A DNA stretch of 64,000 bases from Squalus acanthias (GCA_030390025.1 CM059431.1:146694001-146758000); one strand, 5' to 3'; counted from the first letter of the stretch, positions 6,001-42,689 are shown. A program made the numbers and translations. The notes: generated by a model from the letters alone, not told the origin.

Positions 6001-9000
6001 TCCATTGATGGTATCTGTCCATTCACTTTCCCCATCGAATGATGGTTTCTGTCCATTCACTTTCCCAATCCATTGATGGTATCTGTCCATTCACTTTCCC
6101 AATCCATTGATGGTATCTGTCCATTCACTTTCCCAATCCATTGATGGTATCTGTCCATTCACTTTCCCAATCTATTGATGGTATCTGTCCATTCACTTTC
6201 CCAATCCAATGATGGTATCTGTCCATTCACTTTATCCATCCATTGATGGTATCTGTCCGTTCACTTTCCCAATCCATTGATGGTATCTGTCCATTCACTT
6301 TCCCAATCATTGATGGTATCTGTCCATTCACTTTCCCAATCCATTGATGGTATCTGTCCATTCACTTTCCCAATCCATTGATGGTATCTGTCCATTCACT
6401 TTCCCAATCCATTGATGGTATCTGTCCATTCACTTTCCCAATCCATTGATGGTATCTGTCCATTCACTTTCCCAATCCATTGATGGTATCTGTCCATTCA
6501 CTTTCCCAATCCATTGATGGTATCTGTCCATTCACTTTCCCAATCCATTGATGGTATCTGTCCATTCACTTTCCCAATCCATTGATGGTATCTGTCCATT
6601 CACTTTCCCAATCCATTGATGGTATCTGTCCATTCACTTTCCCAATCCATTGATGGTATCTGTCCATTCACTTTCCCAATCCATTGATGGTATCTGTCCA
6701 TTCACTTTCCCAATCCATTGATGGTATCTGTCCATTCACTTTCCCAATCCATTGATGGTATCTGTCCATTCACTTTCCCAATCCATTGATGGTATCTGTC
6801 CATTCACTTTCCCAATCCATTGATGGTATCTGTCCATTCACTTTCCCAATCATTGATGGTATCTGTCCATTCACTTTCCCAATCCATTGATGGTATCTGT
6901 CCATTCACTTTCCCAATCCATTGATGGTATCTGTCCATTCACTTTCCCAATCCATTGATGGTATCTGTCCATTCACTTTCCCAATCCATTGATGGTATCT
7001 GTCCATTCACTTTCCCCATCGAATGATGGTTTCTGTCCATTCACTTTCCCAATCCATTGATGGTATCTGTCCATTCACTTTCCCAATCCATTGATGGTAT
7101 CTGTCCATTCACTTTCCCAATCCATTGATGGTATCTGTCCATTCACTTTCCCAATCTATTGATGGTATCCGTCCATTCACTTTCCCAATCCAATGATGGT
7201 ATCTGTCCATTCACTTTATCAATCCATTGATGGTATCTGTCCATTCACTTTCCCAATCCATTGATGGTATCTGTCCATTCACTTTCCCAATTCATTGATA
7301 GTATCTGTCCATTAACTTTCCCAATCCATTGATGGTATCTGTCCATTCACTTTCCCAATCCATTGATGGTTTCTGTCGATTAACTTTCCCAATCCATTGA
7401 TGGTATCTGTCCATTCACTTTCCCAATCCATTGATGGTATCTGTCCATTCACTTTCCCAATCCATTGATGGTATCTGTCGATTAACTTTCCCAATCCATT
7501 GATGGTATCTGTCCATTAACTTTCTCAATCCAACGATGGTATCTGTCCATTAACTTCCCCAATCCAATGATGGTATCTGTCCATTCACTTTCCCAATCCA
7601 TTGATGGTATCTGTCCATTCACTTTCCCAATCTATTAATAGTATCTGTGCATTGATTTCCCCAATCCATTAATGATATCTGTCCATTCACTTTCCCAATC
7701 TATTGATGGTATCTGTCCACTCACTTTCCCAATCCAGTGATGGTATCTGTCCATTCACTTTCCCAGTCTATTGATGGTATCTGTCCACTCACTTTCCCAA
7801 TCCATTGATGCTATCTGTCCATTCACTTTCCCAATCCATTGATGGTATCTGTCCATTCACTTTCCCAATCCATTGATGGTAACTGTCCATTCACTTTCCC
7901 AATCCATTGATGGTATCTGTCCATTCACTTTCCCAATCTATTGATGGTATCCGAACATTCACTTTCCCAATCCAATGATGGTATCTGTCCATTCACTTTA
8001 TCAATCCATTGATGGTATCTGTCCATTAACTTTCCCAATCCATTGATGGTATCTGTCCATTCACTTTCTCCAATCCATTGATGGTATCTGTCCATTCACT
8101 TTCCCAATCCATTGATGGTATCTGTCCATTCACTTTCCCAATCCATTGATGGTATCTGTCCATTCACTTTCCCAATCCATTGATGGTATCTGTCCATTCA
8201 CTTTCCCAATCCATTGATGGTATCTGTCCATTCACTTTCCCAATCCATTGATGGTATCTGTCCATTCACTTTCCCAATCCATTGATGGTATCTGTCCATT
8301 CACTTTCCCAATCCATTGATGGTATCTGTCCATTCACTTTCCCAATCCATTGATGGTATCTGTCCATTCACTTTCCCAATCCATTGATGGTATCTGTCCA
8401 TTCACTTTCCCAATCCATTGATGGTATCTGTCCATTCACTTTCCCAATCTATTGATGGTATCTGTCCATTCACTTTCCCAATCCATTGATGGTATCTGTC
8501 CATTCACTTTCCCAATCCATTGATGGTATCTGTCCATTCACTTTCCCAATCCATTGATGGTATCTGTCCATTCACTTTCCCAGTTCATTGATGGTATCTG
8601 TCCATTAACTTTCCCAATCCATTGATGGTATCTGTCCATTCACTTTCCCAATCCATTGATGGTATCTGTCCATTCACTTTCCCAATCCATTGATGGTATC
8701 TGTCCATTCACTTTCCCAATCCATTGATGGTATCTGTCCATTCACTTTCCCAATCCATTGATGGTATCTGTCCATTCACTTTCCCAATCCATTGATGGTA
8801 TCTGTCCATTCACTTTCCCAATCCATTGATGGTATCTGTCCATTAACTTTCCCAATCCATTGATGGTATCTGTCCATTCACTTTCCCAATCCATTGATGG
8901 TATCTGTCCATTCACTTTCCCAATCCATTGATGGTATCTGTCCATTCACTTTCCCAATCCATTGATGGTATCTGTCCATTCACTTTCCCAATCCATTGAT

Positions 9001-12000
9001 GGTATCTGTCCATTCACTTTCCCAATCCATTGATGGTATCTGTCCATTCACTTTCTCAATCCATTGATGGTATCTGTCCATTCACTTTCCCAATCCATTG
9101 ATGGTATCTGTCCATTCACTTTCCCAATCCATTGATGGTATCTGTCCATTCACTTTCCCAATCCATTGATGGTATCTGTCCATTCACTTTCCCAATCCAT
9201 TGATGGTATCTGTCCATTCACTTTCCCAGTCTATTGATGGTATCTGTCCATTCACTTTCCCAATCCATTGATGGTATCTGTCCATTCACTTTCCCAATCC
9301 ATTGATGGTAGCTGTCCATTCACTTTCCCAATCTATTGATGGTATCTGTCCACTCACTTTCCCAATCCATTGATGGTATCTGTCCATTCACTTTCCCAGT
9401 CTATTGATGGTATCTGTCCATTCACTTTCCCAATCCATTGATGGTATCTGTCCATTCACTTTCCCAATCCATTGATGGTATCTGTCCATTCACTTTCCCA
9501 ATCCATTGATGGTATCTGTCCATTCACTTTCCCAATCCATTGATGGTATCTGTCCTTTCACTTTCCCAATCTATTGATGGTATCTGTCCATTCACTTTCC
9601 CAATCCAATGATGGTATCTGTCCATTCACTTTCCAATCCATTGATGGTATCTGTCCATTCACTTTCCAAATCCATTGATGGTATCTTCCACTCACTTTCT
9701 CCACCCATTGATGGTATCTGTCCGTTCACTTTCTCAATCTATTGATGGTATCTGTCCATTCACTTTCCCATCGAATGATGGTTTCTGTCCATTCACTTTC
9801 CCAATCCAGTGATGGTATCTGTCCATTCACTTTCCCAATCCATTGATGGTATCTGTCCATTCACTTTCCCAATCCATTGATGGTATCTGTCCATTCACTT
9901 TCCCAATCCATTGATGGTATCTGTCCATTCACTTTCCCAATCCATTGATGGTATCTGTCCATTCACTTTCCCAATCTATTGATGGTATCTGTCCATTCAC
10001 TTTCCCAATCCATTGATGGTATCTGTCCATTCACTTTATCAATCCATTGATGGTATCTGTCCATTCACTTTCCCAATCCATTGATGGTATCTGTCCATTC
10101 AGTTTCCCATTCAATTGATAGTATCTGTCCATTCACTTTCCCAATCCATTGATGGTATCTGTCCATTAACTTTCCCAATCCATTGATGGTATCTGTCCAT
10201 TCACTTTCCCAATCCATTGATGGTATCTGTCCATTCACTTTCCCAATCCATTGATGGTATCTGTCCATTCACTTTCCCAATCCATTGATGGTATCTGTCC
10301 ATTCACTTTCCCAATCCATTGATGGTATCTGTCCATTCACTTTCCCAATCCATTGATGGTATCTGTCCATTCACTTTCCCAATCATTGATGGTATCTGTC
10401 CATTCACTTTCCCAATCTATTGATGGTATCTGTCCATTCACTTTCCCAATCCAATGATGGTATCTGTCCATTCACTTTCCCAATCCATTGATGGTATCTG
10501 TCCATTCACTTTCCCAATCCATTGATGGTATCTGTCCATTCACTTTCCCAATCCATTGATGGTATCTGTCCATTCACTTTCCCAATCCATTGATGGTTTC
10601 TGTCGATTAACTTTCCCAATCCATTGATGGTATCTGTCCATTCACTTTCCCAATCCATTGATGGTATCTGTCCATTCACTTTCCCAATCCATTGATGGTA
10701 TCTGTCGATTAACTTTCCCAATCCATTGATGGTATCTGTCCATTAACTTTCTCAATCCATCGATGGTATCTGTCCATTAACTTCCCCAATCCAATGATGG
10801 TATCTGTCCATTCACTTTATCAATCCATTGATGGTATCTGTTCATTAACTTTCCCAATCCAATGATGGTATCTGTCCATTCACTTTATCAATTCATTGAT
10901 GCTATCTGTCCATTAACTTTCCCAATCCATTGATGGTATCTGTCCATTCACTTTATCAATCCATTGATGGTATCTGTTCATTCCCTTTCCCAATCCATTG
11001 ATGGTATCTGTCCATTCACTTTCCCAATCCATTAATAGTATCTGTGCATTGATTTCCCCAATCCATTAATGATATCTGTCCATTCACTTTCCCAATCCAT
11101 TGATGGTATCTGTCCATTCACTTTCCCAATCCATTGATGGTATCTGTCCATTCACTTTATCAATCCATTGATGGTATCTGTCCATTCACTTTCCCAATCC
11201 ATTGATGGTATGTGTGCATTGATTTCCCTAATCCATTAATGATATCTGTCCATTCACTTTCCCAATCCATTGATGGTAACTGTCCATTCACTTTCCCAAT
11301 CCATTGATGGTATCTGTCCATTCACTTTCCCAGTCTATTGATGGTATCTGTCCATTCACTTTCCCAATCCATTGATGGTATCTGTCCATTCACTTTCCCA
11401 ATCCATTGATGGTATCTGTCCATTCACTTTCCCAATCCATTGATGGTATCTGTCCATTCACTTTCCCAATCCATTGATGGTATCTGTCCATTCACTTTCC
11501 CAATCCATTGATGGTATCTGTCCATTCACTTTCCCAATCATTGATGGTATCTGTCCATTCACTTTCCCAGTCAATGATGGTATCTGTCCATTCACTTTCC
11601 CAATCCATTGATGGTATCTGTCCATTCACTTTCCCAATCCATTGATGGTATCTGTCCATTCACTTTCCCAATCCATTGATGGTATCTGTCCATTCACTTT
11701 CCCAATCCATTGATGGTATCTGTCCATTCACTTTCCCAATCATTGATGGTATCTGTCCATTCACTTTCCCAATCCATTGATGGTATCTGTCCATTCACTT
11801 TCCCAATCATTGATGGTATCTGTCCATTCACTTTCCCATCCATTGATGGTATCTGTCCATTCACTTTCCCAATCCATTGATGGTATCTGTCCATTCACTT
11901 TATCAATCCATTGATGGTATCTGTCCATTCACTTTCCCAATCCATTGATGGTATCTGTCCATTCACTTTCCCAATCCATTGATGGTATCTGTCCATTCAC

Positions 12001-14895
12001 TTTCCCAATCCATTGATGGTATCTGTCCATTCACTTTCCCAATCCATTGATGGTTTCTGTCGATTAACTTTCCCAATCCATTGATGGTATCTGTCCATTC
12101 ACTTTCCCAATCCATTGATGGTATCTGTCCATTCACTTTCCCAATCCATTGATGGTATCTGTCGATTAACTTTCCCAATCCATTGATGGTATCTGTCCAT
12201 TAACTTTCTCAATCCATCGATGGTATCTGTCCATTAACTTTCCCAATCCAATGATGGTATCTGTCCATTCACTTTATCAATCCATTGATGGTATCTGTCC
12301 ATTAACTTTCCCAATCCAATGATGGTATCTGTCCATTCACTTATCAATCATTGATGGTATCTGTCCATTCACTTTCCCAATCCATTGATGGTATCTGTCC
12401 ATTCACTTTCCCAATCCATTGATGGTATCTGTCATTCCCTTTCCCAATCCATTGATGGTATCTGTCCATTCACTTTCCCAATCCATTGATGGTATCTGTC
12501 CATTCACTTTCCCAATCCATTGATGGTATCTGTCCATTCACTTTCCCAATCCATTGATGGTATCTGTCCACTCACTTTCCCAATCCATTGATGCTATCTG
12601 TCCATTCACTTTATCAATCCATTGATGGTATCTGTCCATTCACTTTCCCAATCCATTGATGGTATGTGTGCATTGATTTCCCTAATCCATTAATGATATC
12701 TGTCCATTCACTTTCCCAATCCATTGATGGTAACTGTCCATTCACTTTCCCAATCCATTGATGGTATCTGTCCATTCACTTTCCCAGTCTATTGATGGTA
12801 TCTGTCCATTCACTTTCCCAATCCATTGATGGTATCTGTCCATTCACTTTCCCAGTTCATTGATTGTAGCTGTCCATTCACTTTCCCAATCTATTGATGG
12901 TATCTGTCCACACACTTTCCAAATCCAATGATGGTTTCTGTCCATTCACTTTCCCAATCCATTGATGGTATCTGTACATTCACTTTCCCAATCTATTGAA
13001 GGTAACTGTCCATTCACTTTCCCAGTCCAATGATGGTATCTGTCCATTCACTTTCCCAATCTATTGATGGTATCTGTCCATTCACTTTATCAATCCATTG
13101 ATGGTATCTGTTCATTCACTTTCCCAATCCATTGAAGGTAACTGTCCATTCACTTACCCAATCCATTGATGGTATCTGTCCATTCACTTTCCCAGTCTAT
13201 TGATGGTATCTGTCTATTCTCTTTCCCAATCCATTGATGGACTCTGTCCATTCACTTTCCCAGTTCATTGATGACAGCTGTCCATTCACTTTCCCATCCA
13301 TTGATGGTATCTGTCCAGTCACTTTCCCAATCCATTGATGGTATCTGTCCATTCACTTTCCCAATTCATTGATGGTAGCTGTCCATTCACTTTCCCAATC
13401 CAGTGATGGTATCTGTCCATTCACTTTCCCAATCGATTGATGTTATCTGTCCATTCACTTTCCCAGTCCATTGATTGTATCTGTCCATTCACTCTCCCAA
13501 TCCATTGATGGTATCTGTCCGTTCACTTTCCCAATCCATTGATTGTATCAGTCCATTCACTTTCTCAATCCATTGATGGTATCTGTCCATTCACTTTCCC
13601 AATCTTTTGATGGTATCCGTCCATTCACTTTCCCAATCCAATGATGGTATCTGTCCATTCACTTTATCAATCCATTGATGGTATCGGTCCATTGACTTTA
13701 CCAATCCATTGATGGTATCTGTCCATTCACTTTCTCACTCAATTGATGGTATCTGTCCATTCACTTTCTCAATCTATTGATGGTATCCGTCCATTCACTT
13801 TCCCAATCCATTGATGGTATCTGTCCATTCACTTTCCCAATCCATTGATCGTATCTGCCGATTAACTTTCCCAGTCCATCGATGGTTTCTGTACATTAAC
13901 TTTCTCAATCCATTAATGGTATCTGTCCATTAACTTTCCCAATCCATTGATGGTATCTGTCCATTCACTTTCCCCATCCATTGTTGGTATGTGTGCATTG
14001 ATTTCCCTAATCCATTAATGATATCTGTCCATTCACTTTCCCAATCCATTGATGGTAACTGTCCATTCACTTTCCCAATCCATTGATGGTATCTGTCCAT
14101 TCACTTTCCCAGTCTATTAATGGTATCTGTCCATTCACTTTCCCAATCCATTGATGGTATCTGTCCATTCACTTTCCCAGTTCATTGATGGTAGCTGTCC
14201 ATTCACTTTCCCAATCTATTGATGGTATCTGTCCACTCACATTCCCAATCCAATGATGGTATCTGTCCATTCACTTTCCCAGTCTATTGATGGTATCTGT
14301 CCATTCACTTTCCCAATCCATTGATGGTATCTGTCCATTCACTTTCCCAATCTATTGATGGTATCCGTCCATTCACTTTCCCAATCCAATGATGGTATCT
14401 GTCCATTCACTTTCCCAATCTATTGATGGTATCTGTTCATTCACTTTCCCAATCCATTGATGGTAACTGTCCATTCACTTTCCCAATCCATTGATGGTAT
14501 CTGTCCATTCACTTTCCCAGTCTATTGATGGTAGCTGTCCATTCACTTTCCCAATCCATTGATGGTATCTGTCAATTCACTTTCCCAATCTATTGATGGT
14601 ATCTGTCCATTCACTTTTCCAATCCATTGATGGAATCTGTCCATTCACTTTCCCAATCCATTGATGGTATCTCTGCATCGATTTCCCCAATTCAGTGATG
14701 GTATCTGTCCATTCACTTTCCCAATCTATTGATGGTATCTCTCCATTCACTTTCCCAAACCAGTGATGGTATCTGTGCATCGATTTCCCCAATCCATTGA
14801 TGGTATCTGTCCATTCACTTTCCCAATACATTCACGGTATTTTTCCACTCACTTTCCCAATCCATTGATAGTATCTGTCCATTAACTTTCCCAGT
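1..14895. repeat. 34-bp tandem satellite (TCCATTGATGGTATCTGTCCATTCACTTTCCCAA)n, ~440 units, running off the left edge
   Basis: Directly visible head-to-tail repeat. Units become more diverged from ~12800 to the end of the array. Confidence 0.99.
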
Positions 14896-18985: not shown

Positions 18986-19058
18986 ATATAAACAGAAAGT
19001 TCAGGAAATACTCAGCAGGTCAAGTAACATCTGTAGAGAGAGAAACAGAGTTAAAGTT
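18986..19058 (-). mobile_element. Penelope-like inverted pseudo-LTR, left part (split by the ERV; continues at 31736-31866)
   Basis: The reverse complement matches the PLE terminus at 33010-33090. Joining 19058 to 31740 restores gagttaaagtttcagg. Confidence 0.85.
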
Positions 19059-20710
19059 TGTAAGGGGTTCGGGTGGCTCTGTGCTCAGCCTGGGTGCTAG
19101 TGCGGGGTTAGGCCTCGTTGCCTGTTCTGGTCTCCAGTCAGCCTGGTAACACTAGACACCTGTCAGTGGTTCGACCCACTCGCCCTTACGGTTCTGACAC
19201 TGGACTTAGGTGCGAGAGCAATAATGCAGAGAAAAGTCAGGTAGACCCGGTTGAATAGTACGAAATGGAAAATCTTTATTGCATGTTGTTCAAGATTACG
19301 AAATACATGTCATAAGCACAGATTAACGACAGTACAAGCTTACATACATTTATGAAACTAGGTTTAGGGAAACGAGGAGCGCACGACACATCGTAAAAGG
19401 GGACACACATTATAATTATCCTTAAAACAAAAACCCTCCCCTATTAATACCTGTCCTAATCTAGATCTGTAGGATCGATAATCATGCTCACCACTCGTGA
19501 TAACTCAGAGAATTCTAAAACGATGCTCGGATGTTTTCGCCACAACACCTGACTATTCACGTGTTGATCAGGGGTCTCTGTACCCAACTTGTTTACTCAC
19601 ACTGCTCCGGCTAGCAGGCTGGACCATCTGCTGCCATGAAGATCTGTGTTGACCTCGGATTCCTGATAAAATTCAAAGAAGAGTCTTCCTGTGCCGACAC
19701 CCGTTCGGTAAAACTCGAAGAAGAGTCTTCTGGTGCCAGTTGTGGAGTAGCCGATAAAATTCAAAGAAGTGAACAATCGATTTTCGGGCGCAGTCGGGGC
19801 TTACTGACCGCGGCGGCACGTGTAGTCTTCTTCTTCTCTTCTCATCTCATCTCATCTCATCTCCTCTCGGGCCTTCAGATCCAACACCGTTTCCCCACCT
19901 CTCGGGATGGTACACCCGCTTGCAGGCCTTCGCAGACCAGCTCTCCACAGATCTTCGTGGCAAGCCACGAGGTCGACCCCAGAAGGATCAGCGGATCAGA
20001 GAATAAGAGTCAAGAGCTCGAGTCGGTGGTCGGCAGAGAATAAGAGAGTCAAGAGTCGGCCGGGATAAGAGGAAGATGGACGTTTGGAAACTACAGTTAT
20101 AGTACTGTAATTCCTTATCTCCCGCCCAATCTTAACCTTCATCTTTTGTCATGTTTTGGCGCTCAAACTTCTTGTATGGGGTGGTTCTTGTAGTTAATGG
20201 GTTTCGGTGATACTTGTAACTGTCTAAGTACCCGTTAATATTTCTTCCATTGTGGAACCGGCTAGGGGTCTCCCTGGAGGGGTTTTGGGGGCCTCCGAAT
20301 TCTTGCTGTGAGTACCCGCGAACGGCTCTCTCATCGTAGAGCCGCGGGGACTTTGCGTATCAATGTCTTTGGATGGGCCCTTGATTGCCCAGTACAATAG
20401 CCCTCGTTTGTGCATGGAAAACCGATTCCAGCACTTATATTTCTTAGGTGTTAAAATGCAAAACAATCGCGCCTTGTCTTATATCAATATGCTGAGTACT
20501 GTCCGATCTTGCAGAAATGTTTATTGAACCGCCATCTTGTCTGCCTACTGAAAGTCTGGAACCTTCTGCCACGAGGCGCGGCGGCCATTTTACAGGCTGC
20601 TTGTGTCCGTTTTGAAACCTGACAGCATTTTGCTGAAATAAAGCTGTTTATACGAAACTGTATGTCTCTATCTCGTTATTTCGAAATCGCGATAATTTGC
20701 GAATTCTACA
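19059..20710 (-). repeat. 3' LTR (1652 bp)
   Basis: Direct repeat of 30084-31735. Minus-strand AATAAA at 19275-19280. Confidence 0.97.
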
Positions 20711-20722
20711 GTCCCTCCTGTT
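20711..20722 (-). promoter_or_regulatory. Polypurine tract (AACAGGAGGGAC) abutting the 3' LTR
   Basis: Purine-rich run ending 2 nt (AC) before the LTR start TG on the minus strand. Confidence 0.75.
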
Positions 20723-21162
20723 GATGCGAATAACTCCGCTTATCGTATCAATTAAAAGTGGTGGTGAGCAACAATATCTCGATTCTCCATATCCAAATAT
20801 TCCTTTGACTTAAAACTATCTAGGGTCTCCGTGTCGTGCTTATTTCCCAGGGAAAAATTATAATTTTATCAAACCGTTGGCAGTATTTGCCTTTAACTTA
20901 CACCGCGTGTATGTCTTCCAGGTGTAACAGGCCGATGCCTCTTGCACCACCTGTATGTGCATGTTTTTTTTTATTATTCAGGAAAAGAAAAACAAAACAA
21001 TCACACAACCATTTTAACAACACAAAATTAAAAATAATCCAAGAACAACTCTTTTTAAAAAACCGAATTCCAAACTTAGCTACAGGTTCTAAGAAAAATA
21101 ACAATCAATAAACAACTACGAGACACAACATGGAAAAACTGGAGTGTCGTCACTCTGGCCGT

Positions 21163-23513
21163 TTACGCGGCGCTTTCTCCGTGCACGCGCACGTAACGCT
21201 CTCGCCACTCTCCTGTGTTTTCCTGTTCTGTGAGGCGCTTGCCTCTCTTACAGTGCACGACCAACAGGTATACTACAATTATGACCTGGCATACAACTAA
21301 AATGTGGGAGGCTATTCTAATCCAGGAAGGCACTTCGATGTTGGTGAACAGATCCCACCACGGTGGGATTACTATGTCTAGGATCTCTGACCCAATCGTG
21401 ACAGTCTTTTGCTCAAGGGTATAAAAATGTTCCTGCGAAACCGCAACGGCTTTCACAAGTTTGGTGAGGTGTTCAGGGAGAGGGGGAATGATGTATCCGA
21501 AATGTGCGACGAATCGCTGCAAGTCGGTAAAATTCTCTTTTACTGTTAGATGAACAGTGGATGGTTCAGGGATCGGGACAATTCGCTGCTGTGCCACTTG
21601 AACTTCAGCCCTGGGTTTAAAACAGAAACTGCTGTCACTCACCGGACACCGGTTACGGTTTCCATGCTGGTAGTGTTGCGCTGCAGTGGTAACACAATAT
21701 GTTCCACCCCCTATGTATGCCACCTGCGGAGGCACATGATCTTGTGCCATTGCCTCCATGGTGCAATTCATGGGCTTGGCGCCAGCCGTTCTGAACCCGC
21801 ACTGTGGTGATAAAAAGGCATTCAAGTGCTGGAGACACAGGATTATATGTGCTCCCCTGCCACGACAACCAGAGAGATCTGTACCTGTCATCGTTTGCTC
21901 CCAGTGGATGACGTAAGGTGGGACCGCTGCATAGCGAATGTGGGCTCCCCCATGAATGACACCAATGTTCTCTACCCGATACACTGGGGCGGGCTTTGCT
22001 GTGTCGCCCAAAACCGGCATACGTAAAACTATACCCGTAATGGTATGGTTTGACCGTCCGCAGTCCACGGGGACTGGATATGCTTCTGAAGCTAGCCTGA
22101 GCTGGCACGGGCTTAATGCGTTCTGAAAAGGGTGGAGCGCCTGCAGGTGTTTGTTACTTATCCAGGACGGGACCAAACCTTGTTTTAAATCCTCCAAATT
22201 ACTGCGGCCCTCGCCCAGTAACCACGCCCCATAGAGCACGCACACCTCGTTCTGCGCAGCCTGATCGGATGCATTCCGATCTTCCCTGATCAGGGCATTT
22301 ACCGTACGCGCATGTTTCTCCAGTTCAGCTATAATTTCCTTTAAATGGAGCGTCATGGCCTGGTCTTCATGTAACCCAGATCCTACCACCTTATTTTCGT
22401 CTGTAAGGATATTCTTTAATTGAGTTTTTAAACCATTAATCTAGGTCTGCAAATCCACGTTATCTAGAGTGTTGACCACAGATGTCCCTGTATTGAACGC
22501 AGTGAACATGTCGTTCACAAAACCCCTTCTTTGTCTCCCCACCTGGCCCAAAACTTCATGTGGTGTGGTGTACAAACTTGTTTTATCAATCTCCGCAAAA
22601 TCGAATTCATTAAATTGTCTAAACATATTGGTCAACAGGACCTGGTACAACTGTTCCATCTCTTAGGGGCACCACTCTGGCAACCGCACCTCGGTGAGAT
22701 TTAAAATCACCGAGGCCACCGCGTAATGTACCCCCTGAAATAGTATCTGGTCTGTAGGGACCAGTACCAAACCATTCCCGGGTCCCTTACTGGTTTTAGG
22801 GCACCCTTCTTCCTGAGCCAAAACCACCGGAATCGTGGGCGGGGCCTTGCGTGGGCGCGTAATGAGTTCAGTGGCGTTTACCGGGATCGGAGAGCAAGGG
22901 GCTCCGCACCCCCTGGTGCTAAAATCCCACCTCATCCCTTTCTCATAATCCTGCCACTGATTCACAAAAAATATGGAGATGCCTTTGGGGCAAACGTGCT
23001 TTGACCCCCACATACACACATAAATTCCCTCATCCAGTTCCCACCATTTGTCCCAACAGACTTTCAATTGCCTGTTAGTCCCCGTAATTGTCCGATGGGT
23101 ATTATTACCCAGTCGCTCCCACTCGACAGAAGAATTCCTCATATTTCTGCTCAGCTTTCGTAGCCACCACCATCGGCTCAATGGGACATTCCCAATACAA
23201 GTTAAACAAATCCGTTTGCCGACGGTGACGCTGACTCTGGGTGCGATGATCCTCACTTTGGGGCACATCAAAGAAGTCTCTTTGTAGGCAAAACCCGTTG
23301 TGCTGGAGTATTCAGTTGAATTCGTTCCCAGCCATCCTGGCACCTTCCCTTGTGGAAATAAATGGCGGTCTCCTCAGCCTCTCGCCTCCCGGTCGCATCC
23401 ACCGTGATGGGGGCCGTGTCCCCGGAGCATCCAAACACCACGACATCCTTGGTGTGGCCTCGATAGGCCAGTCCACATCCGCTTGCCGCGAGCACTATCA
23501 GAATCCGTTCCAT
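21163..23513 (-). pseudogene. env: env: signal peptide, Ig-like domain, Pro/Cys linker, F2-like segment, furin site RQRR, F1/foamy-TM-like fusion subunit and TM anchor (~780 aa reconstructed)
   Basis: ATG at 23513 gives MERILIVLAASGCGLA. One frameshift lies at ~23270-23373. In-frame stops at 22663 and 22441 link ORFs 22663-23343, 22441-22659 and 21163-22389. RQRR is at 22525-22536 and the TM helix is WIRIASHILVVCQVIIVVYLLVV. Confidence 0.92.
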
Positions 23514-23789
23514 CCTTCCTTGATTCCAGTGATCAGATAAAATGATGTAGCCAGCCTCCCAAGAGTCTCTGGCTTTTGTGAAGGGTGAGCGGGTCCCCTG
23601 ACCTCGCCTCACGTAAGAAGACATGTGCACTGGATAGATCTTTTAACTAAACCTAATCTAAACTCCCATCATTTATCTTTTACTTATCAAAATGAAACTA
23701 TAAAACTTACAAGAATTACAAACTATAAAACTTCTAACTTATCTTATAAAACTGTACAGCGCCGCCCGTTCCCAAGGCGGCCTATTCAA

Positions 23790-24346
23790 ATTCTGTGAAG
23801 GCGGCCACAAGCTTTTCCCGACGGTGGGTGGGCGCTGACCCCCCCCCCCCCTTTGATCTGCCGCAGCCTGTTGCTGCTGGGCTGTGACTGGGCTCTCCCT
23901 GGGCTGCCTAGCCTTGAACCTACGCCTTGGGACACTCTGGGGACTTGACCATATCTTCCTGGGCTGGGGTGTCCGACTTCACCTACGGGGGCCTACCGGG
24001 GGCAAGAACTCCAGGACCGACGGACCGGGTTTCGAGACTTCCACCGTCGCGACCTGTGGTCCCACCACAGCCGCTGGCTCCGCCTCCCCTGGCTCCGCCT
24101 CCCTCAACTCGTGATCAGCAGTCTCTGGCACCGCCCTACTTGGCCCAGTAGGCGGCCCTTCACTCGCAGTCCCTACCTCCACCGAGGGCAAGACTTCCAA
24201 GGCGGACGGGCTGGGCTCTGAGACTTCCATCGCCACGTCCTGTGGTCCCACCACAGCCGCTGGCTCCGCCTCCCCTAGCTCCGCCCCCCTGATTTCGGGA
24301 CCTGCAGCTTCTGCTTCCACCCTGTGTGGACCTCCACTCGCAGTCC
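23790..24346 (-). other. Acidic/Pro-rich repetitive coding-like segment between integrase and env (pol extension or accessory ORF)
   Basis: ORF 23979-24320 contains two copies of GEAEPAAVVGPQ..EVS.P.PS.LE.LP, with a DNA repeat period of ~186 bp. Confidence 0.5.
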
Positions 24347-27300
24347 CTATCTTCCTTTACCTGAATCGGGGGCGAACCTTTCGTCCTCCGATCCCAGCTC
24401 CTCTTCGCTCGGGTCACTATCTTGGTCGACCTCTTTGAACTCTTCCTCATCTGACTCCCAACCCCAATAAAGGATCCTACATTTTGCTAGGATGTCCTCT
24501 CCCCTGATGCAAGCTGCTTTGCCAGCCTGCGTGCCCTGCGGTCCTACCCGGGGCTGTGTGTCCCCACTCGCAGGTTTGGCCCCTGTGGTTGGCCCTTGTG
24601 CACCCGGCTTATACAGTTTGCACTGATTTACTTGGAACCACTTCGTGCGTCGAGGTACCTTTACGGCGTATACCATGGGACTCGCCTTATCTACAATACT
24701 GTAGGGTCCCATGTACAATGGTTCCAGACTCCCTACTCTGGCATAGCTTCTGACCATGACTTGGTCTCCTATTTCCCACTCCTGTTTCTTGCGGGGTTCC
24801 AGCAACAGGCGATTGCCCTGATGCTGCCTTACCATGTTCCCAGCCGCCTGCTCATAACCCTGCTTCAGGCGCTCCAAGTGGGTCTGGACGAACTTGTCCT
24901 TGCTTACCTCTTGGAGCTGACCCTCAGTGAGCACCGGCGCTAGCACATGGGTGGGGGTTCGCATGATCCTCCCAGTCATCACCTCGTGCGGGTAATACCC
25001 CGTACTTTTCGACTGACTGGCCCGGATCCCCATGAGGACTAGAGGCAGAACCTGCGCCCATTTTTGGGGCGAGTTCATAGTCTCTTTCCTCAATTTCTCC
25101 TTCAGGGTCCGGTTCATGCGTTCAACAATCCCGGCTGACTGGGGATTGTGCGCTACGTGCCACTTCCCTTCAATGCCCAAAAGCATGAGGGTGTTCTGCA
25201 TCACCTGGCTGGTGAAATGACTCCCTTGGTCTGACTCCACGAAACGGGGGAGTCCCCACCGCGAGAACACTTCCCGGACCAAGATTTTTGCAGTACCCAG
25301 CGCCGTAGCTGTTCTACAGGGGAAGGCTTCCACCCATTTGGAAAACACGTCCACCAAGACGAGGCAGTATTTATAGACTCCCTGGGTGGTGGGCAGGGGC
25401 CCTATATAGTCGATCTGGATCGACTGCCAGGGTCCCTCTACCCTCCTGATGTGCCCCATGGGCACTTTCCTTTTCTGGAGGTCTGGGTTGTTTGCAGCGC
25501 ACACAAGACAGCTTGCAAAGAACTCGCGGACCTGCTCCCTGAGTCCCGGCCACCATCTTGCCTGCTCTACCCGTTGCCATGTAACCTCGGGCCCGGGGTG
25601 CCCTGCCCCCGCCCCCCTCATGAGCCAACTGGAGGAATTCCCTCCTGTGCTGCTGCGGCACAACCCACTGCTCCTCGCGGAACAGCATGCCTTCTTTGAC
25701 GGAGAGGGTTGCCGTTCTGTACGGACCCTCTACCTGCTTGCCCTCAGCAATGGTTCTGCGAACTGCTTTTAGGGCGGGGTCCTGGTTCTGGACGGTCTTA
25801 AGGTCTAGGGGCAATGCTACCCTGGTGTTCCCGGGATTCCCGTCCCTACCTTGGATCGCTGCCACGGGTCCGGGCCCATAGGGGTCCCAGAAAATGCCGT
25901 TACGGGCACCTTCCCTGGCTAGCGCATCCGCCTGCTGGTTGCCCTCCCCACGGGGCTCTGTGGAGGAGTGAACCTTCACCTTATGGATGAAAATCTCCCC
26001 TTCCTCCCCTACTGCTGCTAGGATCTTTTCGAGCAAGGGCTTCACCGTTAAAGGTCGCCCGTCCGCGGAGGTGTATCCACGGCGGGACCAAATGGCCAGG
26101 TATTCCGTACATGAATTGCATGTGAACATACTGTCTGAGCAAATCATGTATGGGGTTGGGAAAATTTCTGGGTGGGTAATGACATACGCCACCGCAGACA
26201 GCTCAGCCTGCTGCGCGCTCATGGTGCTGGGGAGCTTAATCGCCAGGGCAAGGTTTGCCGCAGGGTCATAAACTCCACACTCTGTGAGTCGTTCGCCAGC
26301 GGACACTGTGCTGGACCAATCAACATAAATTTCGCGCCCTGTGGGATGTATCCCGGCCCGCAAACCCATGTTGACTTCCCACACCCCTTCCACCGAACAC
26401 TGGTGGGCTGCACCGGGGTATACCAAGTTGGCCGCAAGCCTGGGCTCGCAAAGACCTTTAACTCTAAGATCCATCTGGGAGAGGAGAACGGTCCAGCGCG
26501 CAATTCGAGCGCTGCTTGCGGTCCCATCCTTGATCCTCCCATCGAGAAGCATCATAGTCGGTGTGTGATGGGTGAGGAGAGTGATGGGAGAGAGCCCTTT
26601 GAAGATCGCTGATCTTTTCTCAGCCCAATGCGTGGCTAAAAGATGCCTTTCGCAATTGGAGAAACTCCTCTCCACATCCGTTAACACCCTGGACGAACAG
26701 ACAACCGGCCTCAGCTTGCCGTGACGCTCTTGGAGCAGCACAGCGCTCAAGCTGTCTCCGCTGGCAGCTACCTCCAGGAAAAACTCCTTCCCCCCGTCTA
26801 TGGCCCCTAAAGCTGGCGCGGTCTGCAAATTCCTTTTTAACTTCTCGAAGGCTGCCTGGCAGCCCTCGTCCCAAGACCACTCCACTCCCTTATGGAGGAG
26901 TCGGAGCAGCGGCGCTGCTGTGGCCGCATAGTCTTCGATGAAGTCTCTGCAGTAACCGGTCAGTCCCAAAAAGGACCTCACACCCCTTATGGTGTTGGGA
27001 ATCGGTAACTCTTGCACCGACTCCCTCCTAGCCTTATCTATGGCTCTTTCCCCAGCGCGAATGGTCAGCCCCAGGAATTTTACTTCCTGCTGACCGCTAC
27101 GTGCTTTCTTAGGGTTAACTTTAAAACCCTTTCTCGCTAGCAGCTCCAATAACTCGGCCAGCAGTGTTCCATGCTCCTCCCTTGTGTCCGTAAATAGGAG
27201 CAAATCATCCACGTACTGCACTATCTGATTGGGCTGACTAAACTCCTTTAAACTTCCTGCCATACACTGGTGGAAAATACTGGGGCTGTTGTGGAAACCC

Positions 27301-28279
27301 TGTGGCAAACAGTTCCACGTGTACTGTTGTCCTTTGAAAGTAAAGGCAAATTGTACTGGTCCTCTCGCGGCAGCGGGATGGACCAAAAACCGTTCGAGAT
27401 ATCCAGCACCGTGAACCTGGTCGCGGATGCTGGGATACTCCCTATTAGGTCAGCAAATGCTGCTACCGTGGGCGTGCAGGCGGGAATGTTACTATTGAGG
27501 ACTCTGTAGTCCACCGTGGCCCTCCACGAATTATCCGGCTTCCTCACCGGCCATAATGGGGAGTTCACGTGTGTGGCTATCGGTCTCAACACGCCCTGCT
27601 GCACCCAGGAGGACAGTGCTGTCTCCATATCGGGTTCTGCTTCTTTGGGGAAGTTATACTGCTTTTGGGGCCGGGTCATGGGGTCCCCGTCTACGCTGAC
27701 CTCAAACCCGGTAAACCTCCCACAATCATGCTTGTGGGTTGCAAACGCGTGCATATTATCTGACACGTACGTCTGCATGTCCGTTGGGACATCCGCGACC
27801 ATAAGCCCGAGGTCGTAGCCTCCGGATGGCTTCATGGTACACAGGGCCCCTTTACCTTCCTCCCCCGGGATTACCACTACCTTGCCTTTTCCACCCTTGG
27901 CTCCCCAGAGACAGTGATTCCTAAGGTCCACGAGGATCCCGTGCTCTGATAGGAGATCTGATCCGAGGATGCCTCTCCCACCCCCCTCTTGCCATTTCAT
28001 CAGTATGCACTTCCACGTGGTGTGGAGTGCTCCTAAATGAATGGAGAGCGAAATGGAGAACGCGCCAGCCTGCTCTTTTCCCATGAACCCCGTCAGTGTG
28101 TATGGGACCTTGGTAGACAGTGGTGAGTCAAAGGGGCTATCCGTATGAATCACGGTGCATGAAGCTCCCGTGTCCAACAATTAACTACCCTTCTGCTTCT
28201 CTACCTCCATCTCCACCAGGGTTCGTTTCCACGCATCATAGCTGAGCGGACACAGGTAGATGGGCTGTGCGGGCTCCAG
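24347..28279 (-). pseudogene. pol: pro-pol: aspartic protease, RT, tether RNase H, RNase H and integrase
   Basis: Protease LLDTGA. RT motifs RPQKQY, LPQGFHNSP and QYVDD. A degenerate RH followed by IYVD/QQAEL/SDS/GNQQAD. Integrase HHCC, QIDYIGPLP, SDQG, VERMN and GPY. Disrupted by a TAA at ~28181-28186 and frameshifts at ~27350 and ~25615. Confidence 0.97.
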
Positions 28280-30007
28280 TCATTGGGTTCCGGCGGACGG
28301 GGCTGCGGCATCTGCGGGGCTGGTAGCAACTGCCACCCTCCCTTGCGAAATCATGAGGGTCCGCATGGCTCCCAGCATTGATTCTATCGCATCGGGATGG
28401 ATATGCACACCAGCTCCCTTATCGGAGGCAGGCACCTGGGCTCGGGCTGTGGGATTTTTATCCCTGGACTCCTTCCAAGGGTTCCTGCAGTTCTTGCGCC
28501 AGTGCCCTGTCTTTCTGCACATGAAACAAGCGTTACTGGCTTGCGGGATGCGATTTGCCTCCTGATGTCACTCCTTTTGAGCCGGGGCTGCGGATCGTGC
28601 CTCATGCACCTTTCCCTTAAGGGGACGCGCTCCCGTACTCCTAGTATTACGGTACCCTACCGTGAGTTGGTTTAAGACCGACTCCTCAGTTGTGATGAGG
28701 TTAGTGCGGTCAAACCACACTTTGGCCTGCTCCCTGACGGCTGGGAAGCTGTTGGCTACTAAACATCTGAGCCAGTGGGCTAAACCGACACCGTCTATGT
28801 GGTGACGCGCTGTCGCGCCTGGGCAGCTATGCCGATATACCGGCCACAGCCTGTCAGCAAAAACCTTCGGGGGTTCTCCCTACATCTGCATAGTCTGTCC
28901 CAATTTAACAAACGGACCTTCTTCGTCCGCCCCCGACACTTCCAGGACCTCCTCTCTTAACTCCTCATAGGTCCTATTACCCCTTTTACTCGCGTCTGAG
29001 AGACACTGGAGGATCGAGCTGTCTAAGGAGAACAGCAGCATTTTAGCCCTTTCACCATCGTCGCAGCCGTTAATGGCTGCGGACTGCTCTACCTCCCTGA
29101 AATGTACGGAAGGGTCGTCTGACTCGGACAGCTTCCGTACATGACTGATCATAGCCCTCAGCTGGTGTGAGCTGTGAGGCAACACAAGCTGGTTGAGGAG
29201 ATTCCCCGCTTCCCCATTTTCTCTGTCCGGGCCTCTCTTGTGGCCCGTGACCGGACACAACGGTCCCGGCTTCACTACTACCTCAGGGGGCTGCACTACC
29301 TCAGGGACCACTTCCTCTACTTCTACCACTTCCTCCCTTACCCAGTTTGCTGAATAGCTGGGTGGCGCGGAGGGCACAGTGGCAAATACCTCCTCTGCTC
29401 TGTTTGGTAGGGATTTTTGGAATTCCCCACCCACCGGCGGCTGGTGTGCTGATGGGCTGATAAGGCACACCATGCCGTGCACTTTCTTCAGGGCCTCTTT
29501 AAGGTGTGGTCGGCCCCCTCATGCTTATCTTCGAGGGACATTTTATATGCCGCACTAACTCCCTCTAAGCTCTCTTCCTGGGCTTTTATTTGAGCAGCTA
29601 GGCGGGCACATCGTTCCCTGATTCTGCCCTCATTTAATTTTGCCTCAGTGACCTGGCACTCGAGGTAATCTATTTTCGTCTCATGGTGGTTGGCGACTAG
29701 CTGGCGTTCCTGATGCAACGCATTTAAGGACGCGATGAGCTGCTGCCCCCCCCGCGAACTTTTCTTCCATCTCCACCTCCAAACCCTTGATCTGAGCTGC
29801 CTGTGCTACGATGACCTGGTCCGAAATCTGGACTTGCCTTTTATAACACATCAGCCAAACCGCTTTCTCTACCGATTTTTTGTGTTCTTTGCTACCTGTC
29901 CACCTGATGGCTGCGTCTTGCGGACGCTTATCCACCAGCAGGTCACTTATCCATCTCTTAGTCAAATTAACTTTCCCAAAAACATAATCGGCTATTCTCT
30001 CTTCCAT
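28280..30007 (-). pseudogene. gag: gag: coiled-coil N-terminus, PSAPPSY late domain, capsid and one CCHC zinc knuckle
   Basis: ATG at 30007 gives MEERIADY. MHR-like Q..GEPPKVFADRL and knuckle CFMCRKTGHWRKNC. Frameshifts at ~29750 (poly-G) and ~29500, and premature stops at 28880 and ~28570. Confidence 0.9.
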
Positions 30008-30061
30008 AACATTTCGCCCATTCAAACCAGGGTCTAACACATTACTTTCTCGCTACCAGTT

Positions 30062-30078
30062 TCCCTTCGTGGTCGCCA
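30062..30078 (-). promoter_or_regulatory. Primer binding site complementary to tRNA-Arg(TCG)
   Basis: TGGCGACCACGAAGGGA is complementary to the vertebrate tRNA-Arg-TCG 3' end TCCCTTCGTGGTCG-CCA. Confidence 0.88.
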
Positions 30079-30083
30079 TTTCC

Positions 30084-31735
30084 TGTAAGGGGTTCGGGTG
30101 GCTCTGTGCTTAGCCTGGGTGCTAGTGCGGGGTTAGGCCTCGTTGCCTGTTCTGGTCTCCAGCCAGCCTGGTAAAACTAGACACCTGTGAATGGTTCGAC
30201 CCCCTCGCCCTTACGGTTCTGACACTGGACTTAGGTGCAAGAGCAATAATGCAGAGAAATCTCAGGTAGACCCGGCTGAATAGTACGAAATGGAAAATCT
30301 TTATTGCATGTTGTTCAAGATTACGAAATACATGTCATAAGCACAGATTAATGACAGTACAAGCTTACATACATTTATGAAACTAGGTTTAGGGAAACGA
30401 GGAGCGCACGACACATCGGAAAAGGGGACACACGTTATAATTATCCTTAAAACAAAAACCCTACCCTATTAATACCTGTCCTAATCTAGATCTGTAGGAT
30501 CGAGAATCATGCTCACCACTCGTGATAACTCGGAGAATTCTAAAACGATGCTCGGATGTTTTCACCACAACACCTGACTATTCAAGAGTTGATCAGGGGT
30601 CTCTGTACCCCACTTGTTTACTCGCTCTGCTCCGGCTAGCAGGCTGGACCGTCTGCTGCCATGAAAATCTGTGTTGACCTCGGATTCCTGATAAAATTCG
30701 AAGAAGAGTCTTCCTCTGCCGACACCCGTTCGGTAAAACTCGAAGAAGAGTCTTCTGGTGCCAGTTGTGGAGTAGCCGATAAAATTCAAAGAAGTGATTA
30801 ATCGATTTTCGGGCGCAGTCGGGGCTTACTGACCGCTGCGGCACGTGTAGTCTTCTTCTTCTCTTCTCATCTCATCTCATCTCATCTCCTCTCGGGCCTT
30901 TGGATCCAACACCGTTTACCGACCTCTCGGGATGGTGCGCCCGCTTGCAGGCCTTTGCAGACCAGCTCTCCACAGATTTTCGTGGCAAGCCACGAGGTCG
31001 ACCCCAGAAGGATCAGCGGATCAGAGAATAAGAGTCAAGAGCTCGAGTCGGTGGTCGGCAGAGAATAAGAGAGTCAAGAGTCGTCCGGGATAAGACAAAG
31101 ATGGACGTTTGGACACTACAGTTATAGTACTGTAATTCGTTATCTCCCGCCCAATCTTAATGTTCATCTTTTGTCATGTTTTGGCGCTCAAACTTCTTGT
31201 ATGGGGTGGTTCTTGTCGTTAATGGGTTTCGGTGATACTTGTAACTGTCTAAGTACCCGTTAATATTTCACCCATTGTGGAACCGGCTAGGAGTCTCCCT
31301 GGAGGGGTTTTGGGGGCCTCCGAATTCTTGCTGTGAGTACCCGCGAACGGCTCTCTCATCATAGAGCCGCGGGGACTTTGCGTATCAATGTCTTTGGATG
31401 GGCCCTTGATTGCCCAGTACAATAGCCCTCGTTTGTGCATGGAAAACCGATTCCAGCACTTATATTTCTTAGGTGTTAAAATGCAAAACAATCGCGCCTT
31501 GTCTTATATCAATATGCTGAGTACTGTCCGATCTTGCTGAAATGTTTATTGAACCGCCATCTTGTCTGCCTACTGAAAGTCTGGAACCTTCTGCCACGAG
31601 GCGCGGCGGCCATTTTACAGGCTGCTTGTGTCCGTTTTGAAACCTGACAGCATTTTGCTGAAATAAAGCTGTTTGTACGAAACTGTATGTCTCTATCTCG
31701 TTATTTCGAAATCGCGATAATTTGCGAATTCTACA
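30084..31735 (-). repeat. 5' LTR (1652 bp)
   Basis: Direct repeat of 19059-20710 with about 50 substitutions by eye and equal length. Confidence 0.97.
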
Positions 31736-31866
31736 AGTTTCAGGTTAATGCCATTTCATCAGAACTGATAAAGTTAGAAATGTATCAGGTTTTAAGCAAG
31801 TACAAAGGCATGGAAAGTGGGTGAAAGAGAGGAAAGAACAAAATGGAAGGTCTGTTATAGGGGGGA
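31736..31866 (-). mobile_element. Penelope-like inverted pseudo-LTR, right part
   Basis: The reverse complement matches 32895-33015. Confidence 0.85.
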
Positions 31867-31879
31867 ACCAGGAGTGTTC

Positions 31880-33090
31880 TGAATTTCTATTCCATTGTCC
31901 CAGTTTCTCCGTATCCGCCACATCTTCTATGACGATGCCACCTTCCAGACCAGTGCTTCCGATGTTTCTTCCTTTTTCATCAACCGAGATTTCCTCTCTA
32001 TTGTGTTTGACACGGCCCTTGATCGTGTCCATTCTATTTCCTGCACTTCTGCTCTTAAACCTTCCCCTCCCTCCCGGAACCGCGATAGGGTTCCCCTTGT
32101 CCTCACCTTTTACCCCACCAGCCTCTGCATTCAACGGATCATCCTCCGCCATTTATGCCACCTCCAGCGTGATCCCACCACAAAACACAACTTCCCCTCA
32201 CCTCCCATTTCAGCATTCCGAAGGGACCGCTCCCTCCACGACACACTGTCCCACTCTTCTATCACGCCCAACTCCCCTTCCCCTTCGACCGGCACCTTCT
32301 GGTGCAAGCGCAGGAGATGCACCACATGCCCTTTTAACTCCTCCCTTCCCACTGTCCAGGGCCCCAAACATCCCTTCCAGGTGAAACAGCGATTTACTTG
32401 GACTTCTTGCAATTTAGTATACTGTATTCACTGCTTAGTATGCGGTCTCCTCTACATTGGGGAGACCAAACGCAGATTGGGTGACTGCTTAGCGGAACAC
32501 CTCCACTCAGTCCGTAAGGGTGATCCCGAGCTTCCAGTCACCTGTCACTTTAATTCAACTCTCCGCTCCCACTCAGACCTCACTGTCCTCGGCTTCTTAC
32601 ACTGTTCCAATGAAGCTCAACGTAAGCTGGAGGAACAGCACCTCATCTTTCGATCAGGCCCTTTACAGCCTTCTGGACTCAACATCGATTTCAACAATTT
32701 CAGAACAAAACATCTGCCCCTATCTTTTTTTCCCATTTTTCTCTCTCTCTCACATGGAAGCTGTCTTTCATTCTGCCATTGCCATTTTCATTTCATCTAG
32801 AGCCATCTTTTCTTTCTTAACTTGTCCCATTACCATCTCCTTTTGCCTTGCACCATCATCCCTTTCGTCTCATAATCTCTGCTGCCTTCCATCCTATCAC
32901 AGACCTTCCCTTTTGTTCATTCCTCCCCACCCACCACTCCCTGCCCCTGCACTTGCTTAAAAACCTATTACATCTCCAACTTTTTCAGTTCTGACGAAGG
33001 GTCATCGACCTGAAACGTTAACTCTGGTTCTCTATCTACAGATGCTGTCTGACTTACTGAGTATTTCCACCATTTTTTGTTTTTATTTCT
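31880..33090 (+). mobile_element. 5'-truncated Penelope-like element: RT C-terminus, Cys-rich linker, GIY-YIG endonuclease and pseudo-LTR
   Basis: ORF 31895-32800 contains SQFLRIR, VPLVLTF, CKRRRCTTC and NLVYCIHC..CGLLYIGETKRRLGD.LAEH. Confidence 0.93.
32987..33023 (+). ncRNA. Minimal type I hammerhead ribozyme of the PLE pseudo-LTR
   Basis: AGTT-CTGACGA-[AGGGTC atc GACCT]-GAAAC-GT-T-AACT. Both core boxes are present, stem I is AGTT/AACT and stem III is the palindrome ACGT. Confidence 0.75.
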
Positions 33091-42310: not shown

Positions 42311-42689
42311 GGACCGCCGCTGCCCCTGTGAAAAAATCATGTTACACAATAATTGGCGTTAGTTACAGTCACTTAACAAACAAGGAGCGATTTTCCTCTT
42401 CAGTGCGCCCCGGCCGCCACTGGGGAAATTGTACAACTTAGTCCATGAAACTCCGTCCATTAAAATCAATGAACGGAAAGTAATCCCAGAGGGAATGTGC
42501 TCTGCGAATCTCTGGTGAAAACTGAAGGCAACATCCCTCTAGAACTCTGCATTAGGTTCTTGAAGTCACATGTTAATTTGGTGAAATCGTCACTCATCCA
42601 TTGTTTAACGATTTGCTTTGTACTGTGATGATGAATGATGATGAATCGGCTCTATGACTGAAGATGAATCTAATCTTACATTACTGGTG

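Follow-up and report, generated by a model that had tools for sequence, protein, structure and literature searches.

An abundant SnRV-grade endogenous retrovirus of Squalus acanthias with a predicted F-type envelope

Does a provirus in a cartilaginous fish whose envelope (Env) resembles the fusion (F) proteins of Mononegavirales belong to the lokiretroviruses (Loki)? We addressed this question for a provirus of Squalus acanthias that runs on the minus strand from position 31735 down to 19059 of a 64,000-nucleotide stretch of DNA (GCA_030390025.1 CM059431.1:146694001-146758000; hereafter the window). It had been predicted from the sequence to be a complete lokiretrovirus-like provirus, either a recently active chondrichthyan member or a new related clade. 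We conclude with good confidence that it is a decayed copy of a high-copy class III endogenous retrovirus (ERV) of the grade of snakehead retrovirus (SnRV), that it lies outside Loki and that it has a predicted F-type Env with a likely Ig-like N-terminus.

Organization, decay and abundance of the provirus

The layout of the provirus is complete, with LTRs, a primer-binding site (PBS) and all genes in order (Table 1). However, the word applies to the layout only, because stops and frameshifts break every gene: gag is fragmented, pol has a stop ahead of the protease motif and frameshifts inside the reverse transcriptase (RT) and at the start of the integrase (IN), and env has one frameshift and two in-frame stops. 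Several predicted features were confirmed. Gag contains a CCHC knuckle (Pfam zf-CCHC, E 0.0005-0.002; coiled-coil families matched only weakly), the Gag stop and the protease share one frame, the PBS matches genomic tRNA-Arg(TCG), and no accessory ORF follows env, where the window provirus has no ATG ORF longer than 63 aa. No accessory gene is shared among sister copies either, in which post-env ORFs of at least 80 aa represent later insertions or sporadic LTR frames. Among the window translations, a Pfam cobra-toxin match (E 0.08) fell below the cut-off and was disregarded, and a phage collection searched with the window proteins was matched by RNase H alone.

Table 1. Features of the provirus and their positions in the window
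Feature	Position	Strand	Basis
Target-site duplication AGTT	31736..31739 (other copy 19055-19058)		Sequence
5' LTR, 1,652 bp, TG..CA ends; AATAAA at 30305	30084..31735	-	LTR comparison
PBS for tRNA-Arg(TCG), 17/18 bases, 5 nt past LTR	30061..30078	-	Genomic tRNA match
gag, five fragments; likely N-terminal coiled coil; one CCHC knuckle (~28487-28528)	28280..30007	-	Frames, Pfam
Gag stop, same frame as pol; type II readthrough site (predicted)	28276..28285	-	Sequence, sister copies
pro-pol: protease (DTG), RT (YVDD), tether, second RNase H, integrase and acidic tail	24347..28279	-	Pfam, frames
Two imperfect 152-nt repeats (78%), pol end	23995..24332	-	Repeat analysis
env 5' part: candidate signal peptide, likely Ig-like domain; frameshifted	22960..23513	-	Weak but concordant measures
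F2-like segment, furin site RQRR at end; one in-frame stop	22525..22790	-	Alignment, model
F1-like subunit: fusion peptide, heptad A, Cys-rich beta domains, heptad B, membrane anchor, tail; one in-frame stop	21163..22524	-	Fold model
Likely PPT: short purine-rich tract preceding 3' LTR, conserved in sister copies	20711..20722	-	Sequence
3' LTR, 1,652 bp	19059..20710	-	LTR comparison

The two LTRs are 96.9% identical (51 mismatches, ungapped; K2P 0.0315). At two literature rates, 2.2e-9 and 2.2e-10 per site per year, this divergence gives an age of approximately 7 to 72 million years, the rate being uncertain. We regard the window provirus as a decayed copy, probably millions of years old, of an endogenous retrovirus that is very abundant. 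It lies ~4 kb from the end of a 34-bp satellite array (window 1-14893; 439 copies, 94% matches), and a 26-bp minisatellite with 184 copies occupies window 42670-47461. The 5' LTR is adjoined by an element (window 31790-32962) that has inverted ends of 25 nt and contains a frame of 305 aa (no Pfam match), which we take to resemble a GIY-YIG/Penelope-type fragment.

When the 3.7-Gb genome was searched at the DNA level with env, 4,102 first-look candidates emerged, and the 40 that were scored are 95-100% identical. The genome contains 1,676 exact matches to the gag-stop 16-mer compared with 2 for a control, and by this census the family numbers at least 1,676 copies. Twenty of the 40 scored copies formed our sister-copy sample. 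LTR divergence spans 0.5-3.2% in the 13 of these with both LTRs at least partly present, which suggests long-lasting activity of the family, also after the window copy. Younger members thus exist, whereas the window copy, at 3.1%, is among the most diverged of the measurable copies and does not fit the predicted recent activity.

Integration leaves 4-bp duplications: among nine copies with both outer ends, seven have an exact 4-bp duplication, one has a single mismatch and one reads as 5 bp. Two PBS types occur in 13 copies (nine like the window, four of a second type), and both match genomic tRNA-Arg(TCG) genes. Reverse transcription would be primed by tRNA-Arg(TCG), with two isodecoders used across copies. 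In the genome, the 3' end of one tRNA-Arg(TCG) isodecoder has 424 matches, mostly in tandem arrays with a ~1.6-kb period on one contig, and the other isodecoder matched once.

Five of the 20 copies carry the same 3.6-kb deletion, in which most of pol is gone and gag and env are kept; such a pol-less subfamily may have been mobilised in trans by the family. These copies (L017, L025, L027, L045 and L051; deletion equivalent to window ~24630-28250) lie on different chromosomes. Three other copies (L018, L026 and L040) have one and the same unrelated element inserted in the region of the 3' LTR, either at it or close by. Across 10 copies, env has a pN/pS of 0.16, a ratio in which CpG decay may inflate pS. 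We infer purifying selection on env and read it as selection for entry during spread; because env was kept under such selection, the family likely spread by repeated germ-cell infection. The best env match (L013/L014) lies on the same contig, ~75 kb before the window copy and inverted. Because it shares both flanks (92% and 97%), we interpret it as a segmental duplicate, and the window copy would have arisen by a single insertion that was duplicated with its flanks and then decayed. Contigs from three sequencing runs of uncertain type span the whole element and are uninformative on expression.

Phylogenetic position of Pol

Tree references were picked by motif from IMG/VR and metagenome contigs and named by RT match to the supplementary alignment of Wang and Han (PMC7947760); the Loki reference loci also match Pfam Fusion_gly. 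The trees contain three Loki sequences, all teleost-type, and are without ERV-L/S, fish foamy-like ERVs, Odin and non-teleost Loki. Among the 48 sequences of the RT tree, Loki formed a clade (100/99) with the non-Loki retroviruses, including the window, as its sister (100/97). The window fell outside the foamy clade (100/100) and the class I groups, so that it nests in neither Spumaretrovirinae nor class I. For a second tree, of RT plus tether, 26 of the 48 sequences were kept, after removal of the long lenti/delta sequences and of two 'gypsy'-labelled sequences that fell among epsilon-like ERVs. Here too the window belonged to the non-Loki retroviruses (99/97) and the foamy clade formed without it. 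The window grouped with its frog, coelacanth and turtle relatives and SnRV, with a support of only 38/75. In AU tests, a window-Loki grouping was rejected (p=0.0019), whereas a position of the window as sister to foamy was not (p=0.31). Given the RT position and the AU result, we place the window family outside Loki. We use 'SnRV-like' as the name of a grade, because the grouping with SnRV has the low support given above and the foamy-sister position is not rejected.

The nearest Pol sequences come from coelacanth (48% identity), Xenopus (41%) and turtle (35%), and relatives at 60-87% identity occur in sawshark, skate and sevengill shark. The motifs on which the RT had been called foamy-like (RPQKQY, NGFW, LPQGFHNSP and YVDD) are all present; however, they are specific to neither foamy viruses nor Loki and best match SnRV and the elephant-shark CmiERV lineage I. 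Loki RT motifs differ from them (CPFGY.NSP/IYVDD). A strict-pattern search of the S. acanthias genome for the exact Loki RT motif gave no match, which is no evidence of absence. Together with the RT position, these differences in RT motifs, and those in the Gag knuckle and PBS, contradict a lokiretrovirus identity. The published hosts of Loki are lampreys, bony fish, amphibians and reptiles, as the original prediction had stated, with none of three chondrichthyans positive in the part of that report accessible to us (PMC7947760).

Other regions are mixed in their affinities. RNase H scored 31 bits with SnRV, 27-32 with gamma, 24 with Loki and 12-23 with foamy sequences. The integrase scored 191 bits with Loki, 127 with SnRV and 100-109 with foamy; its best PDB match is PFV, and an integrase tree (without CGIN1) was a polytomy in which Loki integrase joined the coelacanth relative at 92/90. 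Pfam also finds a tether and a second RNase H in the window pol, which are common to all retroviruses. For Gag, phmmer against SnRV Gag gave nothing above 4 bits, and Gag had no match of any kind past the knuckle; the CCHC knuckle is present in the SnRV reference and absent in three of three Loki ORFs. Gamma/epsilon-type membership was rejected, since the RT lies outside class I and the window env has neither CX6CC nor an immunosuppressive motif.

The gag-pol junction and the envelope

The sequence CAA-TGA-CTAG, in frame with pol, occurs in all 18 copies in which the junction was found, of 20 examined; the window has CAA-TGA-CTGG instead. In alphaviruses and some human genes, UGA-CUA(G) serves as the type II readthrough context, whereas the retroviral contexts given in the part of a 2026 review available to us are UAG-GGA, UAG-GGC (SnRV) and UGA-AGA/CGA/AGU (PMC13517186). 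The family is therefore a retroviral candidate for a readthrough class absent from those contexts. As judged from this signal, Gag-Pol is likely made by UGA-CUAG stop-codon readthrough, and no stable stimulatory RNA structure was found 3' of the Gag stop (z -0.8). TGA-CTAG also stands between in-frame gag and pol in one Loki locus (L109, 3726-3747); the other two Loki loci are broken or different there. All four published Loki gag genes examined end in TGA, and the accessible text of the Loki paper makes no mention of TGA-CTAG at the junction (PMC7947760).

The Env had been predicted to be Mononegavirales-F-like, with a furin site followed by a Cys-rich block (VENIG...PPYVI...DLSGC...C...CG...C...GGGTYCV). 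The sequence confirms both, the furin site reading RQRR and ending at 22525. The following comparisons agree with an F-like Env at the level of the predicted fold. The Env model, built from a 36-row alignment, has pLDDT >70 for 303 of 665 residues, with a confident core. All 43 PDB matches listed by Foldseek are F proteins of paramyxo/pneumoviruses or foamy Env (lowest E 1.2e-11, with TM-scores of only ~0.3), and VIA-align to hPIV3 F (Z 13.3, 323 residues, rmsd 6.3) aligns from ahead of the furin site, covering F2 and F1. The top five matches of a BFVD fold search are F-type fusogens, and the ESM atlas gave Baculo_F at 0.96. The family Env is thus predicted to be an F-type (subclass Ib) fusogen with an F2/F1 core, a furin site, two heptads and Cys-rich beta domains. 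The first-ranked BFVD match is the glycoprotein of a fish filovirus (Wenling thamnaconus), which suggests an F-type fusogen there too.

The foamy Env 8rm0 is among the Foldseek matches (E 6.7e-6). Together with PFV as the best integrase structure and the AU test that leaves a foamy-sister position unrejected, this would suit a divergent, spuma-sister element, like the endogenous foamy viruses of cartilaginous fish. However, the foamy clade excludes the window with full support, and the zinc knuckle, in-frame gag-pol, Arg PBS, lack of accessory ORFs and lack of a Foamy_virus_ENV Pfam match are all unlike spumaviruses, the first four having been recognized as such from the outset. We consider a foamy-like element very unlikely.

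Sequence similarity of the Env is remote. Single-sequence Pfam, PDB and pairwise searches found no matches, and a PDB sequence-profile search returned coiled-coil noise only. On the Env profile, Loki Env scored 47 and 46 bits, foamy Env 16, 13, 6 and 3, and SnRV Env 3, with 3.8 for the top of 252 controls; by this measure, Loki Env is the best-scoring retroviral relative. Paramyxovirus F scored weakly (at most 9.4 bits; 10 of 37 sequences exceeded the highest of 222 controls), and a reciprocal paramyxovirus profile gave 13.4 bits for a family member versus 5.6 for controls. A foamy TM profile gave nothing above controls, and an SnRV-core profile only 4.8 and 4.2 bits (top control 4.1). By hhalign, SnRV Env aligned over 281 columns (probability 94.7, E 6e-8) in a hand-picked region. 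By alignment, the SnRV Env (L102, 6131-9535) appears F-type with Ig-like N-terminal stretches.

Env homologs occur in sawshark, skate, bamboo shark, smooth-hound, horn shark, sevengill shark, catshark and two frogs. In Xenopus, one gene model combines the same Pol type with the same Env family (P0015 versus P0137, E 1e-31), so that this pairing is not shark-specific. Three full-length homologs of 720-750 aa, from bamboo shark, frog and a third source (P0131, P0137 and P0152), are candidate co-opted genes. Two other gene models fuse the Env family to an F-box protein (P0146, a horn shark fbxo15 isoform) or to cadherin repeats (P0129), by exonisation or as an annotation artefact. According to the part of its description that we consulted (PMC2717909), chicken OVEX1 is an SnRV-grade ERV whose env-like ORF of 873 aa is without gamma motifs; we regard this ORF as a candidate F-type Env.

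Ahead of the F2-like segment, the Env N-terminus matched Pfam Ig_3 weakly (E 0.15); six of seven weak PDB sequence matches are Ig, the ESM atlas gave Ig at 0.91-0.92, and one Env homolog in UniRef is named Ig-like. The model of this domain has a pLDDT of 43 (Foldseek best E 0.03). Frog and other homologs have weak Ig matches as well. Judged by four measures that are weak and in part dependent on one another, and by one database name, this part is likely an Ig-like domain. Furin cleavage would likely divide Env into Ig+F2 and an F1 part, the latter refolding as in paramyxovirus F, with the Ig-like domain as a likely attachment module.

Would these Env and junction data, together with the Loki-like integrase, make the family a true lokiretrovirus, the first from a cartilaginous fish? 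The F-type Env scores best against Loki Env, TGA-CTAG is shared with L109, TGA ends the published Loki gag genes, and a tether plus second RNase H is present. Nevertheless, Loki is defined by RT, and the AU test, with its three teleost-type Loki sequences, rejects the grouping; RT motifs, knuckle, PBS and the short protease region differ as well. This reading is extremely improbable. The fallback of a new related clade came nearer the truth, as Env, integrase and gag-pol signal are Loki-like, although the RT is not.

Alternatively, the family could be a recombinant of a class III gag-pol with an env, and perhaps an integrase, captured from a lokiretrovirus. Env swapping is documented in class III, with gamma-type env having been captured by XtERV-S and by elephant-shark lineage I, and such a capture would suit Loki Env as the best-scoring relative. 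However, it would need to be very old: the frog gene model has the same pairing, SnRV Env is homologous too, and an Env tree, although it leaves the branching among retroviral F-type proteins poorly resolved, does not nest the family in Loki. We therefore judge recombination rather unlikely and retain a non-Loki class III ERV as the preferred reading. Tentatively, a shark-frog-coelacanth-turtle lineage may have kept an ancestral kit in which a non-Loki RT is combined with an F-type Env, a Loki-type integrase and UGA-CUAG readthrough. One F fusogen would then have been inherited by Loki, foamy and SnRV-grade retroviruses, gamma/beta Env would be a later replacement, and with the Ig-like module there would be a third way to add a receptor-binding domain to the F scaffold.

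As a class III/SnRV-grade ERV with an F-type Env, the family bridges Loki, foamy and SnRV. Wang and Han, in the part of their paper at hand, left four scenarios for the origin of retroviral Env (PMC7947760). The occurrence of F-type Env among the non-Loki retroviruses of the RT tree, in many sharks, frogs and apparently SnRV, makes this question testable with dense sequences and favours early acquisition. Our search of the literature outside the subscription journals found no report of an F-type Env in SnRV-grade ERVs, and a prior description is possible. In the accessible parts of two preprints, one covers gamma- and beta-type Env only (bioRxiv 2021.11.23.469661) and the authors of the other announce vertebrate results to follow (bioRxiv 2023.10.26.564294). 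The locus also documents an env-retaining family of more than 1,600 copies in a slow-evolving genome. Furthermore, an F-like env by itself does not identify a lokiretrovirus.

Comparison with known retroviral systems

SnRV has an Arg primer site, like the family, whereas those of CmiERV lineage I and XtERV-S are Ser. The family further shares RT motifs, tree grade, an in-frame gag-pol stop and one CCHC knuckle with SnRV and the clade Huo class III ERVs, as far as the latter are described in the sections available to us (Xu et al. 2018, PMC6001957), and a likely Gag coiled coil and a homologous Env core with SnRV. It differs from SnRV in its UGA-CUAG rather than UAG-GGC context, much longer LTR, integrase nearer to Loki, lack of 3' accessory ORFs, and shorter, only remotely similar Env; the two also have no clade support.

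SnRV-like ERVs are known from a chondrichthyan, with gamma-type Env (PMC4422223). From what we could consult of their descriptions, CmiERV lineage I (Han 2015, PMC4422223) and XtERV-S (PMC8278194) resemble the family in SnRV-like/class III Pol, gag-TGA-pol and a simple genome, and in CmiERV lineage I gag likewise ends in CAA-TGA-C. In contrast to the F-type Env of the family, both have a gamma-type Env with an immunosuppressive domain and CX6CC.

With Loki, as described in the accessible text of Wang and Han 2021 (PMC7947760), the family shares an F-type Env with a furin site, a tether and RNase H, a related integrase and a gag that ends in TGA. It differs in an RT outside the Loki clade, a CCHC knuckle, an Arg PBS and the likely Ig-like N-terminal Env extension, and we saw neither the long protease-RT spacer nor the smc gene of Loki in the family. 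The predicted F2+F1 core fold is like that of foamy Env and paramyxo/pneumovirus F, which are subclass Ib fusogens in the portion of Fernandez et al. 2024 that we consulted (PMC11468914). Unlike in foamy viruses, the rest of the family genome is not foamy, and the accessory module of Env lies N-terminal to F2, whereas that of foamy Env is inserted between the subunits.
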